A stretch of DNA of 64,000 bases from an uncultured Clostridia bacterium (GTDB lineage: Bacteria; Bacillota; Clostridia; Christensenellales; UBA1242): contig CANRIT010000002.1 in NCBI GenBank assembly GCA_947630745.1, forward strand, positions 36,474 through 100,473, given 5' to 3'. Made by a program: the position numbers and the translations under genes. Position 1 is the stretch's first letter; each line of letters starts with the position of its first letter. Below, one piece after another: positions 21,755 through 30,688 of this stretch. The notes beneath the pieces were generated by a model. That model ran no database searches and had not been told where the DNA came from. It saw only the letters and a list, made by a program, of their open reading frames with translations.

Positions 21755-22693
21755 TTATTTATATTCAAATTCAAGTTCGGTTTTGCGTTCGTATATTTCA
21801 CCTTGCGGGGTGTCTAACATGCTTTGCGGCGTGGATTTGCGAGCATAGCAATAATTGCAATTGTGGCGGCAGGTGTCGTAACGGCCGATGTCAATGGCGG
21901 GCATGCATCCGCAATATTTACGCTGGCCGTCAAGTTTGTTGTTTTTGCGCTTTACAACAATGCCATCGTCCTTAAATTTGTCAGTTAAAAGTTCTTCAAA
22001 AATTGCGCCGTCAATACATTTGCTTGGCAAAATGTTGTATCTGCTAAAATCTCCACTTTCCGCGCACGCTTCAATTTTTATGCCATTTTTGATTGCAATT
22101 TGCGAAAATTTTGCTAAAATTTCATGTTTTTGTGTTAAATTTGGTGCAAAAACCGTTTTTGAGCAGCCCTTGTAACTTTCAATTACAAAACTTATTTTGC
22201 AATGTTTTGTGTATCCTTTAAGCTGTTCGCACAAATATGTAAATTGCTTTATATGCCAATTAACATCAATCCCATCCGCAAGCAAAATTGGATCGTAGCG
22301 CCAAATTACCGGGCAATATTTTGTTAATTCTTTAAATGTTTCAATCCGCTCAATTAGTGGCGGCAACCCACACTCGATTGTTTGCGGATAAGCGTTTAAG
22401 GTAAACAAAAAATAATATTTATAATCCTTTAATTTTTCCAATTTACTCAACATGGGCTTTGGATTTTTTGACCAAAACACTATGCCTTCAATGTTGCCTT
22501 CCGTTTCAACTTTTTTATCGCCCACCAAGTTATATTCCACGCTTTTAATTTTAAATGGTTTAATTTCAATTTTTGCAATTTTGTTTGGATTAATAGGGTT
22601 TGGCACAAGCGCACATCCGTCCGCCAACCTATCAAAAAACCAATCGCTATAAAACGCCGGAATATCCGTCCGCCTAGACACACTTAAAATCAT
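21755..22693 (-). CDS. DUF1848 family protein
   Basis: MILSVSRRTDIPAFY, IVFWSKNP, IWRYDPI, CGC..AIDIGRYDTCRHNCNYCYA. Confidence 0.9.
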   Translation of the reverse strand: MILSVSRRTDIPAFYSDWFFDRLADGCALVPNPINPNKIAKIEIKPFKIKSVEYNLVGDKKVETEGNIEGIVFWSKNPKPMLSKLEKLKDYKYYFLFTLNAYPQTIECGLPPLIERIETFKELTKYCPVIWRYDPILLADGIDVNWHIKQFTYLCEQLKGYTKHCKISFVIESYKGCSKTVFAPNLTQKHEILAKFSQIAIKNGIKIEACAESGDFSRYNILPSKCIDGAIFEELLTDKFKDDGIVVKRKNNKLDGQRKYCGCMPAIDIGRYDTCRHNCNYCYARKSTPQSMLDTPQGEIYERKTELEFEYK

Positions 22694-23015: not shown

Positions 23016-23044
23016 TTGACAAATATATTTTATTGTGATATCCT
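23016..23044 (+). promoter_or_regulatory. Promoter of the RiPP locus
   Basis: TTGACA, 17 bp spacer, TATCCT with TG extended -10. Confidence 0.55.
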
Positions 23045-23085
23045 AACGATAGAAACTATGTTTCAAAAGTACAAAGGAGGGCGAT

Positions 23086-23190
23086 ATGAAAAAATATATT
23101 ACTCCAGTTGTGTGCAAACTTGATTTAAGCAAAGTTACTGTTTTTTCAGGTTGCAACACTTATTCTAGCGACGATAGTTCTTGCTATTAA
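23086..23190 (+). CDS. Putative RiPP precursor peptide MKKYITPVVCKLDLSKVTVFSGCNTYSSDDSSCY (34 aa; not in the ORF track)
   Basis: Strong RBS AAAGGAGG; YxxP leader motif; Cys/Ser/Asp/Tyr-rich C-terminus; directly upstream of PqqD and radical SAM genes. Confidence 0.85.
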   Translation: MKKYITPVVCKLDLSKVTVFSGCNTYSSDDSSCY

Positions 23191-23197
23191 CTTAAAC

Positions 23198-23232
23198 GAA
23201 AAAGTTATATTCTATATAACTTTTTCTTTTTT
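23198..23232 (+). terminator. Hairpin plus U-tract between the precursor and maturase genes
   Basis: GAAAAAGTTATA-ttcta-TATAACTTTTTC followed by T6. Confidence 0.7.
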
Positions 23233-23246
23233 GTCTGGAGGCGTTT

Positions 23247-23525
23247 GTGAAATATAGAATTAATGATGATATTGTCATAGATGAAATGGATAATATCTTG
23301 ATCTTAACCAAAAAAAATCAAAATCAAGAAATTGATTATAATAATGCCATAATTTTGGAGGATGTCGGCAAATTTATTTTTACGCTTATAATGCAAAATA
23401 AAAATGAAAATAATATTATTAATAACATCCTAAAAGAGTATGATGTGCATATTGATACCGCGAAAAAGGATTTTAAAAATTTTATTGAGCAGCTTGTTCA
23501 AGCGGAGATAATTCATGTTGAATAA
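23247..23525 (+). CDS. Stand-alone PqqD-family RiPP recognition element
   Basis: 92 aa; GTG start with GGAGG; ILEDVGKFIFTLI...ILKEYDV...AKKDFKNFIEQLVQAEII PqqD pattern. Confidence 0.9.
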   Translation: MKYRINDDIVIDEMDNILILTKKNQNQEIDYNNAIILEDVGKFIFTLIMQNKNENNIINNILKEYDVHIDTAKKDFKNFIEQLVQAEIIHVE

Positions 23526-24573
23526 ATCGAAAATAAAAAGTTTTTTGTTTAAGAAACATTATAAAGTTTTGTATGAAGATAGGAAATTATCTTCTGCCAC
23601 TTTTGAAATATTAAATGCTTGTAATTTTAAGTGCGTTCATTGCTATAACCAAAATTTGGCTATAAAATTTATGCCCTTAACTGATGCACTTAAAATTATT
23701 GATGAATTATGCATGCTAGGTTGTAAAAACATCACATTGACCGGCGGTGAAACAACAATGCATCCACAGTTTGAAAAAATTTATAAATATTGTTTCGATA
23801 AAGGATTAAAAATCACGCTCTATACCAATGGGTACTACATTAATAAATTTCTCAACTTTTTAAAAAAATATCCTCCACTAAATATAGATATAAGTCTTTA
23901 TGGGATGAATGATAAGACCTACAAAGAAATATGTCATATTAAAGACGGCTTTTCTGTGATTAGTAACAATATTAATTTGATTTTATCAAATGGATTGCCT
24001 ATAACATTAAAATCAGTAATAATGCAACAAAATTGTGATCAATTTGATCAAATTAACGCGTATTGTACGAAATTAAATATTCCATTTAGGTTTGATTTAA
24101 ATTTACTTACAAGCAAAGATTTTGTAAATAAGCAAGAAGATAATTCGTTAACCGACGATAAATACTTCCAAGTCATGAATCAAATACGCAAACATAAATT
24201 AAACAATTGGATGGGATACATTACTAGGGAAAATGTATTTAATGACAGTGATGCACTTTATTCATGCGGGGCCGGCAGAATAAGTTTATTTATTAATTGT
24301 AACGGCGGTGTAAGAATTTGTAATTTTGCAGAATTTAGCGAAAAAAATTTTAATGACACATCACTAGAAAAAATTTGGGAAAGTTTCAAAGAATATTTAG
24401 TTTTAGATAAGGATAAAAAGGGTGACTGCTACAATTGTAAATATAAAAAATTTTGTTCGAACTGCCCAGTAACTACTTATATGGCCCATAAAACAGACGG
24501 CAAATCAATCCTACCTGTCGCGCAAAATTGTAGAGAAGCGAAATATATTTATAATAGTGTTAATAATGAATAA
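23515..24573 (+). CDS. Radical SAM/SPASM peptide maturase
   Basis: CNFKCVHC (CxxxCxxC), LTGGE, SPASM cysteines CGAG...ICNF...CYNCKYKKFCSNCP...NC; start overlaps the PqqD stop. Confidence 0.92.
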   Translation: MLNKSKIKSFLFKKHYKVLYEDRKLSSATFEILNACNFKCVHCYNQNLAIKFMPLTDALKIIDELCMLGCKNITLTGGETTMHPQFEKIYKYCFDKGLKITLYTNGYYINKFLNFLKKYPPLNIDISLYGMNDKTYKEICHIKDGFSVISNNINLILSNGLPITLKSVIMQQNCDQFDQINAYCTKLNIPFRFDLNLLTSKDFVNKQEDNSLTDDKYFQVMNQIRKHKLNNWMGYITRENVFNDSDALYSCGAGRISLFINCNGGVRICNFAEFSEKNFNDTSLEKIWESFKEYLVLDKDKKGDCYNCKYKKFCSNCPVTTYMAHKTDGKSILPVAQNCREAKYIYNSVNNE

Positions 24574-26290
24574 ATTAAGTACAAAAAAATTCTTTATCAA
24601 TAAAATTAGGTCTGGTGACATAAAACATATAACAATATATGGTTCTAGTATGTTGCCAACTTTTTCAAGCGGTGAAACTATTGAGATTACAAAAGATATT
24701 GAGATAAAAACCGGAAATATAGTTGTCGCGATCAATAATAAATCGGATAATTTTGTTGTTCATAGAATTGTGGATATTAATAATTCGAATAAAGAAGTAT
24801 GCCTACTGGGAGATAATCAAACAAACTCTGAAAAATGCTGGTTGCCGATTAGTAGTCTTATCGCACAAGCCAAAGAACATGCGCATTTAAACAAAAAAAA
24901 TTTAAACTTTAATTTGGTTTGCGATATACCATTTAATAAGCCTAAATATTTTAACGAACCAACATATCAAGTTTTTCAGTCACTCAAAATGAAAGATTAT
25001 GATAGTTATTACTTTGATTATAATATTCAATTCAACTTAAAGCTCTACGATGAAGAAAAAGTTCAAGATTATAAAAACTGCAGTAAAATAGAATTTAATA
25101 ATTTTATGAATTATTTTAAATTGGTTAGAGATATAGCTGCCAGAAAATATAATTTATATAAATTCACTTTTGGAGAACTTGTTTTATGTAACCCTGCCGA
25201 ATCCGAAGAGATAAAGCATATAATTGATAATTATAAGGAAACAATATATTATTCGTTTTATAAAGAAAAAATTATAAAACTCAAAAATTTCATAAAAACA
25301 AAAAATAAAAATTTCAAACCAGTGAAAGTATATTTAGTTGTTAATAATTTTAACAAGTTAATAAGCTCAATAATATTTGCAAAAACATGTAACGAAATTT
25401 TATCTATAAAGCCAATTCTCGTTAATAAATCGCCTATTTTTGATGGCCGATTTGATACAAGATATTACGAACAATTTTTTCTGAAAATAATTTCGATTGC
25501 GGAAATCAACAAAGATATTAACAATTTAAATTCTGATTATTCCCAAATAAATTTTGATGACTATATAACACCATTTAAAATTGCACCAATTACAATCAGA
25601 GAGGAGTGTTATTATAAAAAATGTTTGTTCTGTGATAGACATTGCAAAGATAATTTTTCATTTAATCTAAAAAATATTGTTGATAAAATATCAAATTTGA
25701 CAAAACGCGGTATCAATAATTTTGTATTTGAAGATGATTGTATTATCCCTGGTGAGATGAATAATATCATAAATGCACTAAAAGCAGTCGGGATATCAAT
25801 CAAATGGCAAGGGGTGTTTAGATTTGACAAAGCTTTAAACAATGAGGCAATATTAAAAAATTTTAGCGATAATGGATGCAAATTTTTATTTTTTGGATTA
25901 GAAACTTTTAGCCCAAAGTTATTAAAAAAGATGAATAAGGGCATCGATTTAAAAGACGCTATCAATGTATTAAAGTTATGTAAGCAATATTCAATTAATA
26001 CTAGTGTCAGTTTATTATTTAATTTTACTCAAGAATCTCTAGATGATGTTAAACAAACTTATGAGGGTGTCCAAAATTACATAGATTTGATAGACAATTT
26101 CGAAATAAATTTTTTTACCCCTACAAAAAATTGTAAGGTTTGTTATGATACTAAGGGGATAAATTATTTATGTCATAGTAGAAAAATTTCGAAACAAAAA
26201 CAAGAATATATTCAAAAAATTTTAAATTTAATTAAAGAAAAACATAAATTAGATTCATTTTATCTGAAAAATTACGAAAGTTGGAGCTAA
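24566..26290 (+). CDS. Fusion of an S24/S26-type peptidase (N-terminal) and a B12-class-like radical SAM (C-terminal)
   Basis: GSSMLPT...VVHRI...LGDN peptidase motifs; CYYKKCLFC (Cx4Cx2C), FEDD, FFGLETFSPKLLKKMNKG. Confidence 0.82.
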   Translation: MNKLSTKKFFINKIRSGDIKHITIYGSSMLPTFSSGETIEITKDIEIKTGNIVVAINNKSDNFVVHRIVDINNSNKEVCLLGDNQTNSEKCWLPISSLIAQAKEHAHLNKKNLNFNLVCDIPFNKPKYFNEPTYQVFQSLKMKDYDSYYFDYNIQFNLKLYDEEKVQDYKNCSKIEFNNFMNYFKLVRDIAARKYNLYKFTFGELVLCNPAESEEIKHIIDNYKETIYYSFYKEKIIKLKNFIKTKNKNFKPVKVYLVVNNFNKLISSIIFAKTCNEILSIKPILVNKSPIFDGRFDTRYYEQFFLKIISIAEINKDINNLNSDYSQINFDDYITPFKIAPITIREECYYKKCLFCDRHCKDNFSFNLKNIVDKISNLTKRGINNFVFEDDCIIPGEMNNIINALKAVGISIKWQGVFRFDKALNNEAILKNFSDNGCKFLFFGLETFSPKLLKKMNKGIDLKDAINVLKLCKQYSINTSVSLLFNFTQESLDDVKQTYEGVQNYIDLIDNFEINFFTPTKNCKVCYDTKGINYLCHSRKISKQKQEYIQKILNLIKEKHKLDSFYLKNYESWS

Positions 26291-26374
26291 AATTTGCCAT
26301 TTTAAGAAAATTTGACTATTTTTTATTGCTAAATTTTGTGATTTATAATATAATAGTTAGGGCGTGGAGAAAAT

Positions 26375-28462
26375 ATGGATAAAGATGTGATTTTACAAGA
26401 ACAGGCGCAGCTTGAAATTATTCAAGGCGTTATTCTTGGCGAAATAAATGATTTGGACAAATCGATTAAATTCAACGAGTCCAAAATAAAAGACTCGCTA
26501 AAATATGCGGCAACTGAAAAGTTGGACAAATATGAAGTTGCGGATATTTATGGCGATATTTACGGGCGCGATGTCAGCCTTGATGCTTTGATTAAAGACA
26601 GGCGAATGTTTGCGAGGATACTGCCAAAACCATTTTTCGCCAAAATTGTAATAAAAGAAGGAAAAGGTGAACCTGAAACATTTTATATCGGATTAAAAAA
26701 TGTGCAAGATGATGGCAAGCAATACATAATCGATTGGCGTACACCAATAGCTTCTTTGTTGTATTTTTCATCGCTAGGTGAAACTTATTACCAAGCGCCA
26801 ATGGGCAAAATTAAGGTTGATTTGCAGCTTAAAAGGCAGTTTAGATTAGAACCTAATAAAATTGTTTCATACATCGACACAAACACAAAAATAGATGATG
26901 ATATTTTGCAAGAAATATTAAGCAAAAACACCTCATCCCACATGACCAATATTGTGGAAAGCATACAAGAAGAACAAAACGAGATAATAAGAAAACCCGC
27001 AAATCAATCGGTAATAATTAATGGCATTGCAGGCTCGGGCAAAACATCTATTGCGATGCATAGAATTTCATACATTTTATATGCAAACCGCGGCAACATA
27101 AAAAATGAAAATGTGCTTATAATCTCTCCTAGCAAAATATTTAGCACTTATATAAGCGATCTATTGCCAGAATTGGGCGAAGACAATGTGCCAACAACTT
27201 CCATGCCGCAAATTTTAACAAGGGTTGGGCTTAATCCAAAAATTTTTGGCAGCAAGCTTTCAATGGTCGACAGTCAATTTTATGATGAAAATAGAAAAAA
27301 AGAAATTGATACCAAATTTTCTGTTGAATTTTATGATAAAACTTGCGAATTTTTAAAAAATTATGACATTGTTACACCAATTTATGAAGCATTTAAGGCA
27401 GAAGGGTTAAACGTTCCTTTAGCTGCCATAAAAAAATATAGCAATTTTAAATCGGACGAGATTAAACAAAACATAGAGATGTTGATAGACAATGTGCTTT
27501 ATTTTTGTTACCCGCGCGCAAATGAGCGCACTTTGCAAAAAACAAAGCAAAAAATCATCAAACGGCTAGAGGCGGTTTTGACCACTGAGCAAATTTTTAA
27601 CGACCTTTATACCGCCAACAATTTGCATGTTGCCGAGCTGCAATATGGATTTGAAGATGCGCCTATTTACGCTTATATAAATGCAAAATTAAAAGGTGTG
27701 GAAAAAAATTATTTTGTTAAACACATTTTTGTTGATGAAATGCAGGATTATGACGCATTCAGTATTGCTCTTTTAAGGCAAATTTTCCCTACCGCGACCA
27801 TGACATTAACGGGTGATTATAATCAAAACATTTTGTCCACCCAGTCAAATTTATCGCTGCTTGAACGCATCTTGCCGGGGGTTAAGGTGGATAACCTTTT
27901 GATTAGCTATCGTTCAACAAATGATATAATTGACTTTGCACAAAAAATAATTGGCAAAACAGCAAACACACGCTTTGTTCGCAATGGAGATAAGCCCGAA
28001 ATTGAACAATGCAAAGATGTTGAAAGCATTGTGGAGTTTGTTGATAAAATTGTTAAAAAATTTCCAAATGATAAAATTGCAATTGTGTCAAAAACAATAA
28101 AGCAAGCGCAAAAAATCGCCCAGTACTTAACCGACTTTACTTGCATAGTTAACGAAAATGACGATGCGCTAATTTCCGCAAATAAAATTATAACCACCAC
28201 ATATCTTAGCAAAGGATTGGAATATGATAGGGTTGTTGTTTTGGATGCCGATTGCGAAAATTATAACACTCCACTTGATAGGCAAAATCTATATGTTGCA
28301 TGCACACGCGCGCTGCATGGCGTTTACATCACCTACAAAAACGAATTAACGCCATTCATCGACCCACAATTTAAAAAAAAAGAACATTTTAAGCAAGAAA
28401 TTCTAAAAGGGTGCTCACTGACAGAAGAATCAATAGATACGGTACATAAAAAAGATTTATAG
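26375..28462 (+). CDS. helD: HelD-family RNA polymerase recycling ATPase (UvrD-like)
   Basis: IIDWRTPIASLLY, LKRQF, IQEEQNEIIR, GIAGSGKT, VDEMQD, GDYNQ, KGLEYD, LYVACTRA. Confidence 0.85.
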   Translation: MDKDVILQEQAQLEIIQGVILGEINDLDKSIKFNESKIKDSLKYAATEKLDKYEVADIYGDIYGRDVSLDALIKDRRMFARILPKPFFAKIVIKEGKGEPETFYIGLKNVQDDGKQYIIDWRTPIASLLYFSSLGETYYQAPMGKIKVDLQLKRQFRLEPNKIVSYIDTNTKIDDDILQEILSKNTSSHMTNIVESIQEEQNEIIRKPANQSVIINGIAGSGKTSIAMHRISYILYANRGNIKNENVLIISPSKIFSTYISDLLPELGEDNVPTTSMPQILTRVGLNPKIFGSKLSMVDSQFYDENRKKEIDTKFSVEFYDKTCEFLKNYDIVTPIYEAFKAEGLNVPLAAIKKYSNFKSDEIKQNIEMLIDNVLYFCYPRANERTLQKTKQKIIKRLEAVLTTEQIFNDLYTANNLHVAELQYGFEDAPIYAYINAKLKGVEKNYFVKHIFVDEMQDYDAFSIALLRQIFPTATMTLTGDYNQNILSTQSNLSLLERILPGVKVDNLLISYRSTNDIIDFAQKIIGKTANTRFVRNGDKPEIEQCKDVESIVEFVDKIVKKFPNDKIAIVSKTIKQAQKIAQYLTDFTCIVNENDDALISANKIITTTYLSKGLEYDRVVVLDADCENYNTPLDRQNLYVACTRALHGVYITYKNELTPFIDPQFKKKEHFKQEILKGCSLTEESIDTVHKKDL

Positions 28463-28629: not shown

Positions 28630-29193
28630 TTAAATTTGCCGGACCAAAGCAAGCGCATAGCAATACAACTTATAATACGCCTTTAAAAATTTAACCAACA
28701 TGCCGTCAGATAGATTATAATTCCAAAAAAATTCATGCGAAATGCTATTTCTCACTTTTTTCACAGCTGAATATGTGTTTATAAAGTCTTCTTTTTCAAA
28801 AATATTTTGCTCACCCATTCGCTCTATGCATTGTTTTATCTGCGCTTGGCAAACTGGGTAAAACACATTAGTAAATTCGCTTGTTGATATATCTGGCAAT
28901 TTAATATCATTTATTAAATCTTCCAACAATTCAGATTCCAAAAATTGGCCCGAATATCTATTTTTTTTGTTGATAAATGAAAATGCAAACTTATCCTCTT
29001 GATATTTATATTCAATAATTAGACCTATAATCGCCTCAATCGCGCACGAAATAAAGTTGAAGCTTATGATTTTTGTATATTGATCCATATCGCCTTCTGC
29101 AGCGTACTTAACAAACATAAGATCATTAATATTTTTTAGTCTTTGCAACAAATTGGAATGAATTAATTCTATTTCTTCTTTCGCATTATCCAT
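28630..29193 (-). CDS. HEPN-like nuclease (MAE_28990/MAE_18760-like)
   Basis: VRNSISH Rx4H motif; coupled to the DUF262 gene. Confidence 0.65.
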   Translation of the reverse strand: MDNAKEEIELIHSNLLQRLKNINDLMFVKYAAEGDMDQYTKIISFNFISCAIEAIIGLIIEYKYQEDKFAFSFINKKNRYSGQFLESELLEDLINDIKLPDISTSEFTNVFYPVCQAQIKQCIERMGEQNIFEKEDFINTYSAVKKVRNSISHEFFWNYNLSDGMLVKFLKAYYKLYCYALALVRQI

Positions 29194-29195
29194 AA

Positions 29196-30347
29196 TTATC
29201 CCAAAAACTGTTTTACAAGTTCTACCCTATTCTTCACATTTTCCAAAGTTGTTGTGGATGTTGTAAATAATTTTTTCAAATCTTCATCATTCCAAATTTG
29301 TTCTTTAAATTTTTCTAATTCTGTTGCTGTTTTTTTGAAGATAGGATTTTCAATTGTAGCAATAACCACAGCCTCTGCAAAAATTTCATGGACGCGATCT
29401 GAAATTTTTAAATTGTCCCTTGAACGCGCATAAAAAGCTTGCGGGTCAAATTCATGCAAAATATCAAGTGCTTGTACAATCTTATCCAGTATAGTGTTGT
29501 ATTCAATTTCGTTTTTATTGGCATAATACAAAAAGTTGCTTAGCATTTCATTTTTGGAGCTGGTAAAATTTCTATCAGCCTTATCACAAAATTTATTTAG
29601 ACCATTTTGATAATTTTTATAAGCTAGATAATATGTTGCAAACCTTAAAACAATTTCTTCTGCCTTCTTCCTCTGTTTGATGTTGCCATCATTGGATGTC
29701 AACTTTAAGAAACTATTTGAATTGGTTATCGATTTAATCCTATTCAGCACCTCGCCAGCATACACAGCATTTCTAACCTCTTGTTCTGACAATTTAATCG
29801 AGCCAGTGTTGATTCTTTCAAAAACTTCTGTCATATATAATTTCTTTTTCGACTCAGATTTCTCAGCAGAATCAAAAATCGTTAAAGAAAAGATATAATC
29901 GTTAAAGAAATCTTTATCTTCATCCGACAAAGTTTCGTAAGTTTGACCAAACCATTTTGATTGCTTATTTGTAATGGCAAATTTTCTTTCGTCTGGCGTT
30001 CCTGCCTTCCATACCCCAGTTTTAAACGCTTCGATTGTTGAAACGCGTTGAAAACCGTCAATTAAATTGTAAATTTCATTTCCATCTTTAATTTCTTTGT
30101 ACACAAACAAATCTGGGATTGGCAAGCCCAGCAAGATTGATTCGATAAATTTTACACAATTTTTATAGTTCCAAACATACTCTCTTTGAAAATCAGGAAT
30201 AATCAATTTACCATGATCCTTCCACTTTATCAAATTATCAATTGATCTATCCGTACGATAAGAAGTGATGGCATATCTGGAAATCTCCATGCCATTGCTT
30301 TCTTCTTCATTTATAACCTCATCAATTTCGTCTTTAATTTCTTCCAT
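29196..30347 (-). CDS. DUF262 (ParB-like/GmrS-type) domain protein
   Basis: IPDFQREYVW, FIESILLGLPIP, LIDGFQRVSTI, FERINTG..LSEQEVRNA. Confidence 0.92.
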   Translation of the reverse strand: MEEIKDEIDEVINEEESNGMEISRYAITSYRTDRSIDNLIKWKDHGKLIIPDFQREYVWNYKNCVKFIESILLGLPIPDLFVYKEIKDGNEIYNLIDGFQRVSTIEAFKTGVWKAGTPDERKFAITNKQSKWFGQTYETLSDEDKDFFNDYIFSLTIFDSAEKSESKKKLYMTEVFERINTGSIKLSEQEVRNAVYAGEVLNRIKSITNSNSFLKLTSNDGNIKQRKKAEEIVLRFATYYLAYKNYQNGLNKFCDKADRNFTSSKNEMLSNFLYYANKNEIEYNTILDKIVQALDILHEFDPQAFYARSRDNLKISDRVHEIFAEAVVIATIENPIFKKTATELEKFKEQIWNDEDLKKLFTTSTTTLENVKNRVELVKQFLG

Positions 30348-30688
30348 AAAAATTTCTCCTATGTCATAAATGTGCTTCAAAAATATCCTTCGCAAATTTC
30401 AATTCAATATGCAAATTTGTATACTTACAAAAATTGCTTTTGCCACACACATTCATTAAGTATAATAATACCACAAAAATCTAAAAATTGTCTACTATTT
30501 CCGCCAACCAAAATCAACTTTTTGAAAAATCTCACATGTTTCAACTTGGTTTAATTGGCTTTTATAGGCTGATCCAATGACTTACTGCTATCTATATCGC
30601 TTCATCTATATAACCATAAGGGTCCTATAAAAAAGTGAGTTGACTGAACTACTTCGCCTAGTTCAGTAGGGACAACCTAAAAATATTA

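Follow-up and report, generated by a model that had tools for sequence, protein, structure and literature searches.

Organisation of the locus

In the genome of an uncultured bacterium of the Clostridia (GTDB lineage Christensenellales; UBA1242), a compact gene cassette that appears to make a ribosomally synthesised and post-translationally modified peptide (RiPP) lies upstream of a gene for a HelD-like RNA polymerase recycling ATPase. The stretch of DNA that was analysed, hereafter the window, comprises 64,000 nucleotides (nt) of contig CANRIT010000002.1 (assembly GCA_947630745.1, positions 36,474 to 100,473), and every feature of the locus is found on its plus strand. The cassette is preceded by a promoter-like site at 23016-23044 (TTGACA, a 17-nt spacer and a TG-extended TATCCT, with 10/12 consensus matches), which lies 42 nt 5' of the precursor start and is recognised by its consensus match only. 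A ribosome-binding site (RBS) with the sequence AGGAGG (23075-23080, as read from the sequence) stands 5 nt ahead of the ATG of the precursor peptide gene (23086-23190), whose product of 34 residues reads MKKYITPVVCKLDLSKVTVFSGCNTYSSDDSSCY.

Downstream of the precursor gene, folding identifies an A/T hairpin at 23198-23226 with a U-tract behind it, the whole element reaching to 23234. Three enzyme genes follow. The first encodes a PqqD-type RiPP recognition element (RRE) of 92 residues (23247-23525; PF05402, E 4.9e-10), the second a radical S-adenosylmethionine (SAM)/SPASM maturase of 352 residues (23515-24573), assigned from PF04055, PF13186 and its Cys motifs, and the third a fusion of an S24/S26 peptidase with a radical SAM domain (24557-26290), assigned from Pfam matches, invariant alignment columns and an AlphaFold2 (AF2) model. 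With regard to the start of this last protein, the GTG at 24557 gives 577 residues, and the ATG at 24566 is the likelier start. The HelD-like ATPase, of 695 residues, is encoded at 26375-28462 and was recognised by its matches to the family model NF041464 and to the structure 6wvk.

The cassette occupies about 3.3 kb, in which a predicted core of 12 residues is accompanied by the three enzyme genes. The open reading frames (ORFs) of the PqqD and SPASM proteins overlap by 11 nt and those of the SPASM and fusion proteins by 8-17 nt, overlaps through which the cassette genes are predicted to be translationally coupled. The GC content of the block is 26.6%, as against 33.8% in the window as a whole and 35.9% in the 8 kb that precede the block. 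An earlier reading of the same letters (the sequence-only reading) had described a promoter, a strong RBS and a 34-residue ORF, followed by coupled genes for PqqD, SPASM and peptidase-radical SAM proteins, in a block richer in A and T than its surroundings; the coordinates, the domain matches together with the overlaps, and the base composition bear out each of these.

The precursor peptide

Homologous loci were gathered from genome, metagenome and assembly collections, which yielded 11 distinct loci, the window included, where the cassette is linked to HelD. A homologous short ORF precedes the genes for PqqD, the SPASM enzyme and the fusion protein in each locus whose sequence extends sufficiently far in the 5' direction (11 distinct loci, 10 of them besides the window). 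The spacing within the precursor is fixed across the 11 HelD-linked loci, and the core motif is also present in two distant systems with SPASM enzymes of only about 30% identity.

In the peptide of the window, residues 1-22 make up the leader, with Y4-x-x-P7 and F20 at position -3, and the predicted core extends from C23 to Y34 and reads CNTYSSDDSSCY. The consensus of the leader over the 11 loci is (M)KKYxxPx[V/L]...[V/I/L]F-x-[G/A], in which an invariant Phe stands two residues ahead of the invariant G/A that precedes the core. The core is of constant length and follows the consensus C-x2-[Y/F/W/H/S/A]-x-[S/N/T/D]-[D/E]-x-[D/S/N/Q]-S-C-Y, with C1, [D/E]7, S10, C11 and Y12 as its invariant positions (motif C-x5-[D/E]-x2-S-C-Y); a literature search with this motif string found no relevant paper. 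The Tyr is the final residue in only 4/13 distinct precursors, and the longer ones continue beyond it with C, N, S, AGDD, YGDDGED or YETDDD. Among four orthologues of 34 codons, the ratio of nonsynonymous to synonymous differences (pN/pS) ranges from 0.11 to 0.43 at a pS of 0.47-0.74, where synonymous sites are near saturation, and these values argue for purifying selection on the peptide.

An ORF of merely 34 codons, missed by automatic gene calls in some records and mis-called in L023, could be taken for a chance frame, in which case the enzymes would have another substrate. Against this speak its retention at the identical position in every locus, the invariant core motif, the pN/pS well under 1, the strong RBS and a YxxP leader that fits the adjoining PqqD. 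On the strength of conservation and pN/pS, which are sequence evidence, the spurious ORF may be regarded as effectively excluded, with only the slightest probability left to it. The sequence-only reading had postulated this unannotated precursor, had paired its YxxP motif with a PqqD-like RRE, had placed the core in the C-terminal segment, and had named the lack of a conserved short ORF in homologous loci as an outcome that would speak against the proposal. When the homologous loci were checked, the ORF was found conserved in the 10 other loci and under purifying selection, the motif was accompanied by an adjoining gene for a discrete PqqD-type protein, and the C-terminal dodecapeptide proved to be conserved across loci.

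The hairpin behind the precursor gene has a perfect 13-bp stem of A/T pairs only, followed by CUUUUUUG. Its predicted folding energy is -12.8 kcal/mol (z = -2.4), and 3/200 shuffled sequences were equally stable. A consensus terminator scan, which requires G-C pairs, reported nothing at the hairpin because its stem has none. In 11/11 HelD-linked loci a stable hairpin nonetheless lies in the gap that separates the stop codon of the precursor gene from the start of the PqqD gene, usually with a T-run after it, and the stem sequences differ; that the structure is conserved and the sequence is not supports a partial terminator with an excess of precursor transcript. The element is a candidate partial terminator or attenuator that would give excess precursor mRNA, with the promoter and the strong RBS driving the precursor, and the hairpin and U-tract passing only part of the transcripts into the enzyme genes. 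The leaky terminator that had been proposed after the precursor agrees well with this attenuator-like hairpin of conserved position.

Predicted maturation of the peptide

The gene for the PqqD-type protein is conserved in all loci, directly after the precursor gene. Its best matches among the NCBIfam models are lasso-peptide PqqD chaperones, below cut-off (31 vs 80 bits), and the model of the pyrroloquinoline quinone (PQQ) pathway PqqD, TIGR03859, gives 14 bits against a cut-off of 46. To judge from its family and from the leader, this discrete protein would bind the YxxP motif and present the peptide to the enzymes.

The SPASM enzyme carries the cluster motif C36-x3-C40-x2-C43, invariant in 14/14 sequences (PF04055, E 9e-21), and a SPASM domain that scores 26.5 bits against PF13186, above the cut-off of 21.5. 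Of the SPASM cysteines, C251, C269, C305, C308, C314 and C317 are present in 14/14 sequences and C339 in 13/14. The best NCBIfam match is the mycofactocin maturase TIGR03962, at 87 bits for a cut-off of 265, and the scores against AlbA (57 vs 850 bits), the SkfB family (52 vs 300) and StsB (56 vs 625) are also far below their cut-offs; among solved structures, SkfB (6efn) is the closest in sequence. The two Cys residues of the core, together with an acidic residue that tolerates the exchange of Asp and Glu, are compatible with thioethers of the ranthipeptide or sactipeptide type. The enzyme would cross-link the core C-x5-[D/E]-x2-S-C-Y, and the odds are about even that it does so chiefly through Cys-derived thioethers, possibly to the acidic residue. 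The cross-links through Cys, Asp and Tyr that the sequence-only reading had put forward would likewise be candidates.

Two other chemistries were considered for this enzyme and rejected. Mycofactocin-like decarboxylation of a terminal Tyr is at odds with a Tyr that is final in so few precursors and is preceded by Cys, as well as with the low TIGR03962 score; since the precursors often extend past the Tyr, the weak best match to MftC appears to be misleading. Likewise, PQQ-like chemistry between Glu and Tyr is at odds with the spacing of the core, which is [D/E]-x4-Y vs E-x3-Y, and with a TIGR02109 (PqqE) score of 49 bits against a cut-off of 381.

The fusion protein begins with a soluble signal peptidase I (SpI)-type peptidase of about 115 residues, which has an N-terminal helix in the AF2 model and no membrane anchor. 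Its boxes GSSMLPT (S31), HR (H69) and GDN (D86) are invariant, and the domain matches signal peptidase I of the archaeal and endoplasmic reticulum type (TIGR02228, 45 bits; SipW; SEC11A/C in the PDB). Residues ~120-577 are modelled as a Rossmann-like domain and a radical SAM core (AF2, pLDDT 83), with a cluster motif C351-x4-C356-x2-C359 that is invariant in 14/14 sequences, including those of distant stand-alone homologues. The best Foldseek matches of the radical SAM part are MgmA, OxsB, TsrM and AprD4 (9ccb, 5ul3, 6wtf, 6fd2), at only 11-13% sequence identity to the solved structures, and profile hidden Markov model similarity points to the PhpK family and to RiPP C-methyltransferases. The Pfam B12-binding domain PF02310 found no match in the fusion protein of the window. 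On the basis of the model, the second radical SAM enzyme resembles the cobalamin-dependent class, and its Cx4Cx2C domain would add a second modification, by C-methylation or by another radical transformation. AprD4 has the same fold and is said to lack cobalamin, and the fold is not always that of a methylase; C-methylation in particular can be put forward only tentatively.

The removal of the leader finds a parallel in the clusters for linear polyphosphorylated peptides (LPPs). There LppB, the RRE, delivers a YxxP leader to LppS, an SpI-like peptidase with S29, H68 and D93 as catalytic residues, and cleavage requires a Phe at position -3, which is accommodated in a hydrophobic cleft (Popov et al., Nat Commun 2026, PMC13381572). 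Radical SAM enzymes are nowhere mentioned in that paper. In the window, the PqqD gene lies two genes upstream of the peptidase fusion. Compared with the LPP motif YxxPxVLxHQxIxFET, the leader has the YxxPx[V/L] element and the Phe, whereas HQ, ET and the spacing (16 vs 13 residues) differ. The combination of a PqqD, an SpI-like triad and a YxxP leader with its Phe predicts cleavage between G22 and C23, which would yield the core given above. By analogy to LppS, the fused peptidase, with Ser31, His69 and Asp86 as its triad, probably cuts the leader off after F20-S-G22 and would release an acidic peptide of roughly 12 residues. Across related clusters the peptidase is found either by itself or as a fusion, whose partner is the SPASM enzyme in some and the second radical SAM enzyme in others, and its occurrence in three architectures marks it as a component of the pathway. 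Radical SAM pathways appear to have taken up this signal-peptidase-like module, which an RRE guides and of which the first description dates from 2026, in each of the three arrangements.

Distribution and distant relatives of the cassette

The family is tiny. Among 5.8 billion proteins, only about eleven are full-length relatives of the fusion protein, and an exhaustive profile search of 1.84 billion cluster representatives gave ~5 that are full-length. A scan of metagenome contigs added one further locus, of a type already represented, and no relative of the cassette was found in viral contigs. The HelD-linked loci all come from gut Christensenellales of one narrow lineage, and the sequence of the window was recovered only in DNA runs, from a rabbit gut metagenome. 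Among the curated family models of NCBIfam, none reaches its cut-off for the proteins of the cassette, and no paper on this gene set was found in the literature. The cassette is almost certainly a genuine and uncharacterised RiPP gene cluster, as the sequence-only reading had supposed when it failed to recognise the gene set; it stands for a radical SAM RiPP family that has yet to be characterised, in which a maturase carries a fused leader peptidase of a newly recognised type.

Precursors that share the core are encoded in two distant systems from other organisms, MKKEYMKPIVIKINLNEDVKIFHACNAFQSDSDSCYS (L025) and MYIKPIVVVINLAEETPVFVACGSFENDSNSCYS (L031), beside SPASM homologues of ~30% identity. 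The SpI peptidase is located at the C-terminus of the SPASM enzyme in L025 and is a stand-alone protein of 120 residues in L031, and the Cx4Cx2C radical SAM enzyme is a separate protein in both. The set that defines the class is therefore formed by the precursor, the RRE, the SPASM enzyme and the Cx4Cx2C radical SAM enzyme, and the peptidase is a mobile component. Both clusters (L025:541-7836, L031:805-11570) add ATP-binding cassette (ABC) transporters, a weakly HprK-like P-loop protein and NTP_transf_5, so that the version in the window, judged by its gene content, would be a minimal form that lacks the kinase, the transferase and the exporter. The precursors of L025 and L031 end in Ser after SCY, which suggests, by analogy, C-terminal phosphorylation or nucleotidylation as in paeninodin and the LPP systems. 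An additional B12-binding radical SAM enzyme is encoded in L031.

Linkage to a HelD-like ATPase

The product of the gene downstream of the cassette aligns with its best PDB match, chain H of the B. subtilis HelD-RNA polymerase complex (6wvk), over residues 78-280 and 425-663, with an E value of 1.8e-83, and its N-terminal 77 residues have no sequence-level alignment to B. subtilis HelD. The ATPase motifs are intact (Walker A GIAGSGKT; Walker B DEMQD, within VDEMQDY), and the UvrD N- and C-terminal Pfam domains are both matched. An assignment to Gabija GajB or another defence helicase was rejected, as PADLOC gives a generic, UvrD-level 48 bits vs 382 bits for HelD.

HelD adjoins the cassette in 11/11 distinct loci, whereas all other flanking genes vary. 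In eight of these loci (the window, L001, L002/3, L004/L021, L011, L023, L028 and L029) the gene lies downstream on the same strand, and in the other three (L007, L009 and L026) it lies upstream and is divergent. The start of HelD overlaps the stop of the fusion gene or is 2-3 nt from it in L004/L021 and L028, an arrangement that indicates one operon. In the window, the spacer between the fusion gene and helD measures 84 nt and has promoter-like sites at 26294-26354, including TTGCTA-17-TATAAT. The trees of HelD and of the cassette are congruent.

The genus was sampled with 37 genomes of about 1 Mb (Christensenellales), of which 5 have the cassette and 11 have HelD, so that HelD is accessory in the genus; the genome of the window has a single copy of it. 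The near-identical strains represented by L014 and L026 (96% nt identity in the flanks) differ in that the 3.3-kb cassette of the one is replaced by 142 bp in the other, with HelD retained. The exchanged regions, L014:2839-2980 (142 bp, AT-rich) and L026:3435-6755, lie between helD and a UDP-galactopyranose mutase gene, and by eye no obvious direct repeats were seen at the junctions of the indel. The genotype of L014, which keeps HelD without the cassette, looks like an immunity-only state. In the HelD-only loci L012-L016, tblastn detected no cassette remnant nearby. The HelD orthologue of L012 (G034:C1:240809-242842), from a genome without the cassette, is interrupted by two TAA stops and is a probable pseudogene.

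HelD and HelR shield RNA polymerase from rifamycins, and helD is an accessory gene of patchy distribution. In B. subtilis, the N-terminal domain of HelD protects RNA polymerase from rifampicin, and a rifampicin sensor built from two convergent promoters controls helD (PMC12802891); the secondary-channel arm of the protein reaches the active site of the polymerase (bioRxiv 10.1101/2021.05.10.443488; PMC12802891). No paper linking HelD to a RiPP cluster was found in the literature. A functional link between the HelD-like ATPase and the cassette is likely.

Interpretation of the five-gene module

The reading that we favour, at a rough probability of 0.55, is that of a five-gene module in which the four genes of the RiPP cassette would yield a short peptide with modifications and the linked HelD probably protects the producer. 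The ATPase encoded beside the cassette would keep the producer's RNA polymerase safe from the peptide, and if HelD serves as self-protection, then RNA polymerase would be the target. That protection of the polymerase is the most likely role of HelD, and the polymerase thereby the target of the peptide, is a proposal to which slightly less than even odds are given. The more specific version, according to which the mature peptide would be a new RNA polymerase inhibitor among the non-lasso RiPPs and HelD its dedicated immunity protein, acting by target protection with an arm that would enter the polymerase and expel or exclude the peptide, is possible and is offered with more reserve.

Several observations weigh against this reading. 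The score of the HelD-like protein against NF041464 (HelD_BACSU), 381.6 bits with an E value of 6e-114, is slightly under the equivalog cut-off of 419. The family matches of both radical SAM enzymes are all far under the cut-offs, and their reactions are unreadable from sequence. That the leader is cut with Gly at -1 and Phe at -3 is presumed from the analogy with LppS. The RNA runs examined for a homologous locus contain none of it. Furthermore, the conserved module has no exporter gene, which is awkward for a secreted antibiotic. The sequence-only reading had already remarked that the locus has no dedicated transporter, and this holds for the module, although the neighbourhood described there did not extend to the HelD-like gene, which is conserved as well. 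The distant relatives of the L025/L031 type have ABC exporters and no HelD. Within the genus, HelD occurs without the cassette in 6 genomes, and the boundary of the cassette indel leaves HelD outside. Lastly, loci that come from one narrow lineage share ancestry, which inflates the adjacency of 11/11.

The last of these points also favour an account in which HelD is a mere neighbour, the cassette having been inserted beside a resident helD in an ancestor of the lineage and co-inherited with it, HelD serving in general RNA polymerase recycling and the target of the peptide lying elsewhere. All HelD-linked loci are from the Christensenellales, the congruent trees fit vertical co-inheritance equally well, HelD stands alone in some genomes and beyond the end of the L014/L026 indel, and the distant relatives with the same core lack it; moreover, the HelD gene of the window has its own promoter-like site and a GC content above that of the cassette. 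Such an account has to explain why HelD stays adjacent in 11 loci though the other flanks all differ, why the adjacency persists despite a switch of side and strand, why the gene overlaps or abuts the fusion gene in an operon-like manner in some loci, and why it is missing from 26/37 genomes and yet present in every complete cassette locus. It is considered unlikely, though it is the strongest of the alternatives. The product might also act inside the producer, either as a cofactor of the PQQ or mycofactocin kind or as a regulator that binds RNA polymerase and is reset by HelD. A module without an exporter, a combination of PqqD, SPASM enzyme and peptidase like that on which PQQ and mycofactocin biosynthesis are built, the mycofactocin maturase as the best NCBIfam score of the SPASM enzyme, and a core with an invariant acidic residue and Tyr are all in keeping with this. 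The MftC and PqqE scores quoted above are, however, a fraction of their cut-offs, the Tyr is rarely C-terminal and its distance from the acidic residue is not the E-x3-Y of PqqA, and ABC exporters accompany this core in the distant relatives. In addition, a cassette that is present in 5/37 genomes and was cleanly lost between near-identical strains is unlike a core cofactor pathway, and an intracellular role of this kind appears improbable.

More improbable still is an anti-phage module, in which a modified peptide would shut down transcription inside an infected cell, with HelD modulating the host polymerase or rescuing it. In favour of it are a patchy distribution and the lack of an exporter; the window has an NsnA/GmrSD-like gene (29196-30395) and a DUF1848 gene of the type associated with defence-associated reverse transcriptase (DRT) systems as neighbours, and some homologous loci lie near integrases, Fic or restriction-modification genes. 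Conversely, PADLOC reports nothing specific, with the GajB match of HelD generic and the fusion and PqqD proteins matching nothing, the defence neighbours change from locus to locus, and no copy was found in viral contigs.

Under the favoured reading, in which HelD protects the producer, the strict linkage gives a concrete hypothesis of RNA polymerase as the target of a peptide from the gut microbiome, made by a compact and tractable RiPP family in which two radical SAM reactions would act on one invariant motif, C-x5-[D/E]-x2-S-C-Y. If this is true, the locus would be the first RiPP cluster with self-resistance of the HelD type, and its product a natural peptide ligand for the widespread accessory helD paralogues of gut bacteria, the linkage providing a possible natural reason for their spread. 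The HelD-only genomes of the genus would then be immunity-only 'cheaters'. If confirmed, adjacency to HelD could be used as a resistance-gene-guided marker in the mining of RNA polymerase inhibitors.

Comparison with known systems

The closest parallel for the leader-processing part is found in the LPP clusters (LppA/LppB/LppS, PMC13381572), which likewise have a discrete PqqD-type RRE beside a soluble archaeal-type SpI peptidase with an N-terminal helix and a Ser/His/Asp triad (S29/H68/D93 in LppS, S31/H69/D86 here), as well as a leader with YxxPx[V/L] and a Phe at -3. The HprK-like, NTP_transf_5 and ABC genes of the L025 and L031 relatives are also typical of LPP clusters. In contrast, the HprK-like kinase, the NTP transferase and the MsbA-like exporter are absent from all 11 HelD-linked loci, and the class described here is defined by two radical SAM proteins, with the peptidase fused to one of them. 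The distance between Tyr and Phe in the leader is 16 here vs 13, residue -1 is Gly/Ala vs Thr, and the core is a fixed Cys-containing dodecapeptide vs a variable Ser-rich tail.

With the sactipeptide systems (subtilosin/AlbA and SkfA/SkfB) and the ranthipeptide systems (freyrasin/PapB), the locus shares a maturase with Cx3Cx2C and a seven-Cys SPASM domain, a short core with conserved Cys and an acidic residue and, as far as the gene content allows one to predict, an RRE-dependent delivery of the substrate. PapB links Cys to Asp, and Glu is also accepted. The RRE is a separate protein here and an N-terminal domain there, the window adds another radical SAM enzyme along with a leader peptidase of the signal peptidase type, and the AlbA and SkfB matches are far below their cut-offs, with thioethers that are predicted only. 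As to the second radical SAM enzyme, it shares with the class B enzymes MgmA, TsrM and OxsB a predicted Rossmann-like domain followed by the radical SAM core, but differs from them in its Cx4Cx2C motif vs Cx3Cx2C, in the lack of a B12-binding Pfam match and in the peptidase fused at its N-terminus.

The ATPase is like B. subtilis HelD and the actinobacterial HelR in its 382-bit match to HelD_BACSU, in its intact Walker motifs and in being a patchily distributed accessory gene; unlike them, it is tied to a RiPP cassette, and the compound protected against would be a peptide and not a rifamycin. Lasso peptides, for their part, have a YxxP leader in common with the locus (YxxPxL, recognised by the B1 RRE), and the PqqD-type protein is closest to lasso chaperones, but the module has no ATP-dependent lactam synthetase/cyclase and no B2 protease, and there is no Thr at -2. 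Microcin J25 and capistruin are lasso peptides that target RNA polymerase, with immunity through an ABC exporter and not through HelD; the peptide of the window would be conceptually alike if its target is RNA polymerase.

Neighbouring genes

On the other side of the cassette, the minus strand of the window encodes a DUF1848 protein at 21755-22693 (PF08902, E 1.5e-83), which PADLOC matches to RTasDUF1848 of DRT systems at 130 bits, and no reverse transcriptase gene adjoins it. Just downstream of HelD, also on the minus strand, the region 28630-30395 encodes a GmrSD_N/DUF262 protein of 399 residues (PADLOC NsnA, 165 bits) and, overlapping it, a protein of 187 residues with a weak HEPN-like match. 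These two genes look like a defence pair, which the homologous loci do not share. In several genomes of the genus, small proteins of 86-109 residues that are rich in Cys and in Arg/Pro, with CC and CxxC runs, adjoin CLIPPER-domain proteins; they are unrelated to the cassette and are encoded at L005:2478-2804, L014:4230-4559 and L012:4151-4411.

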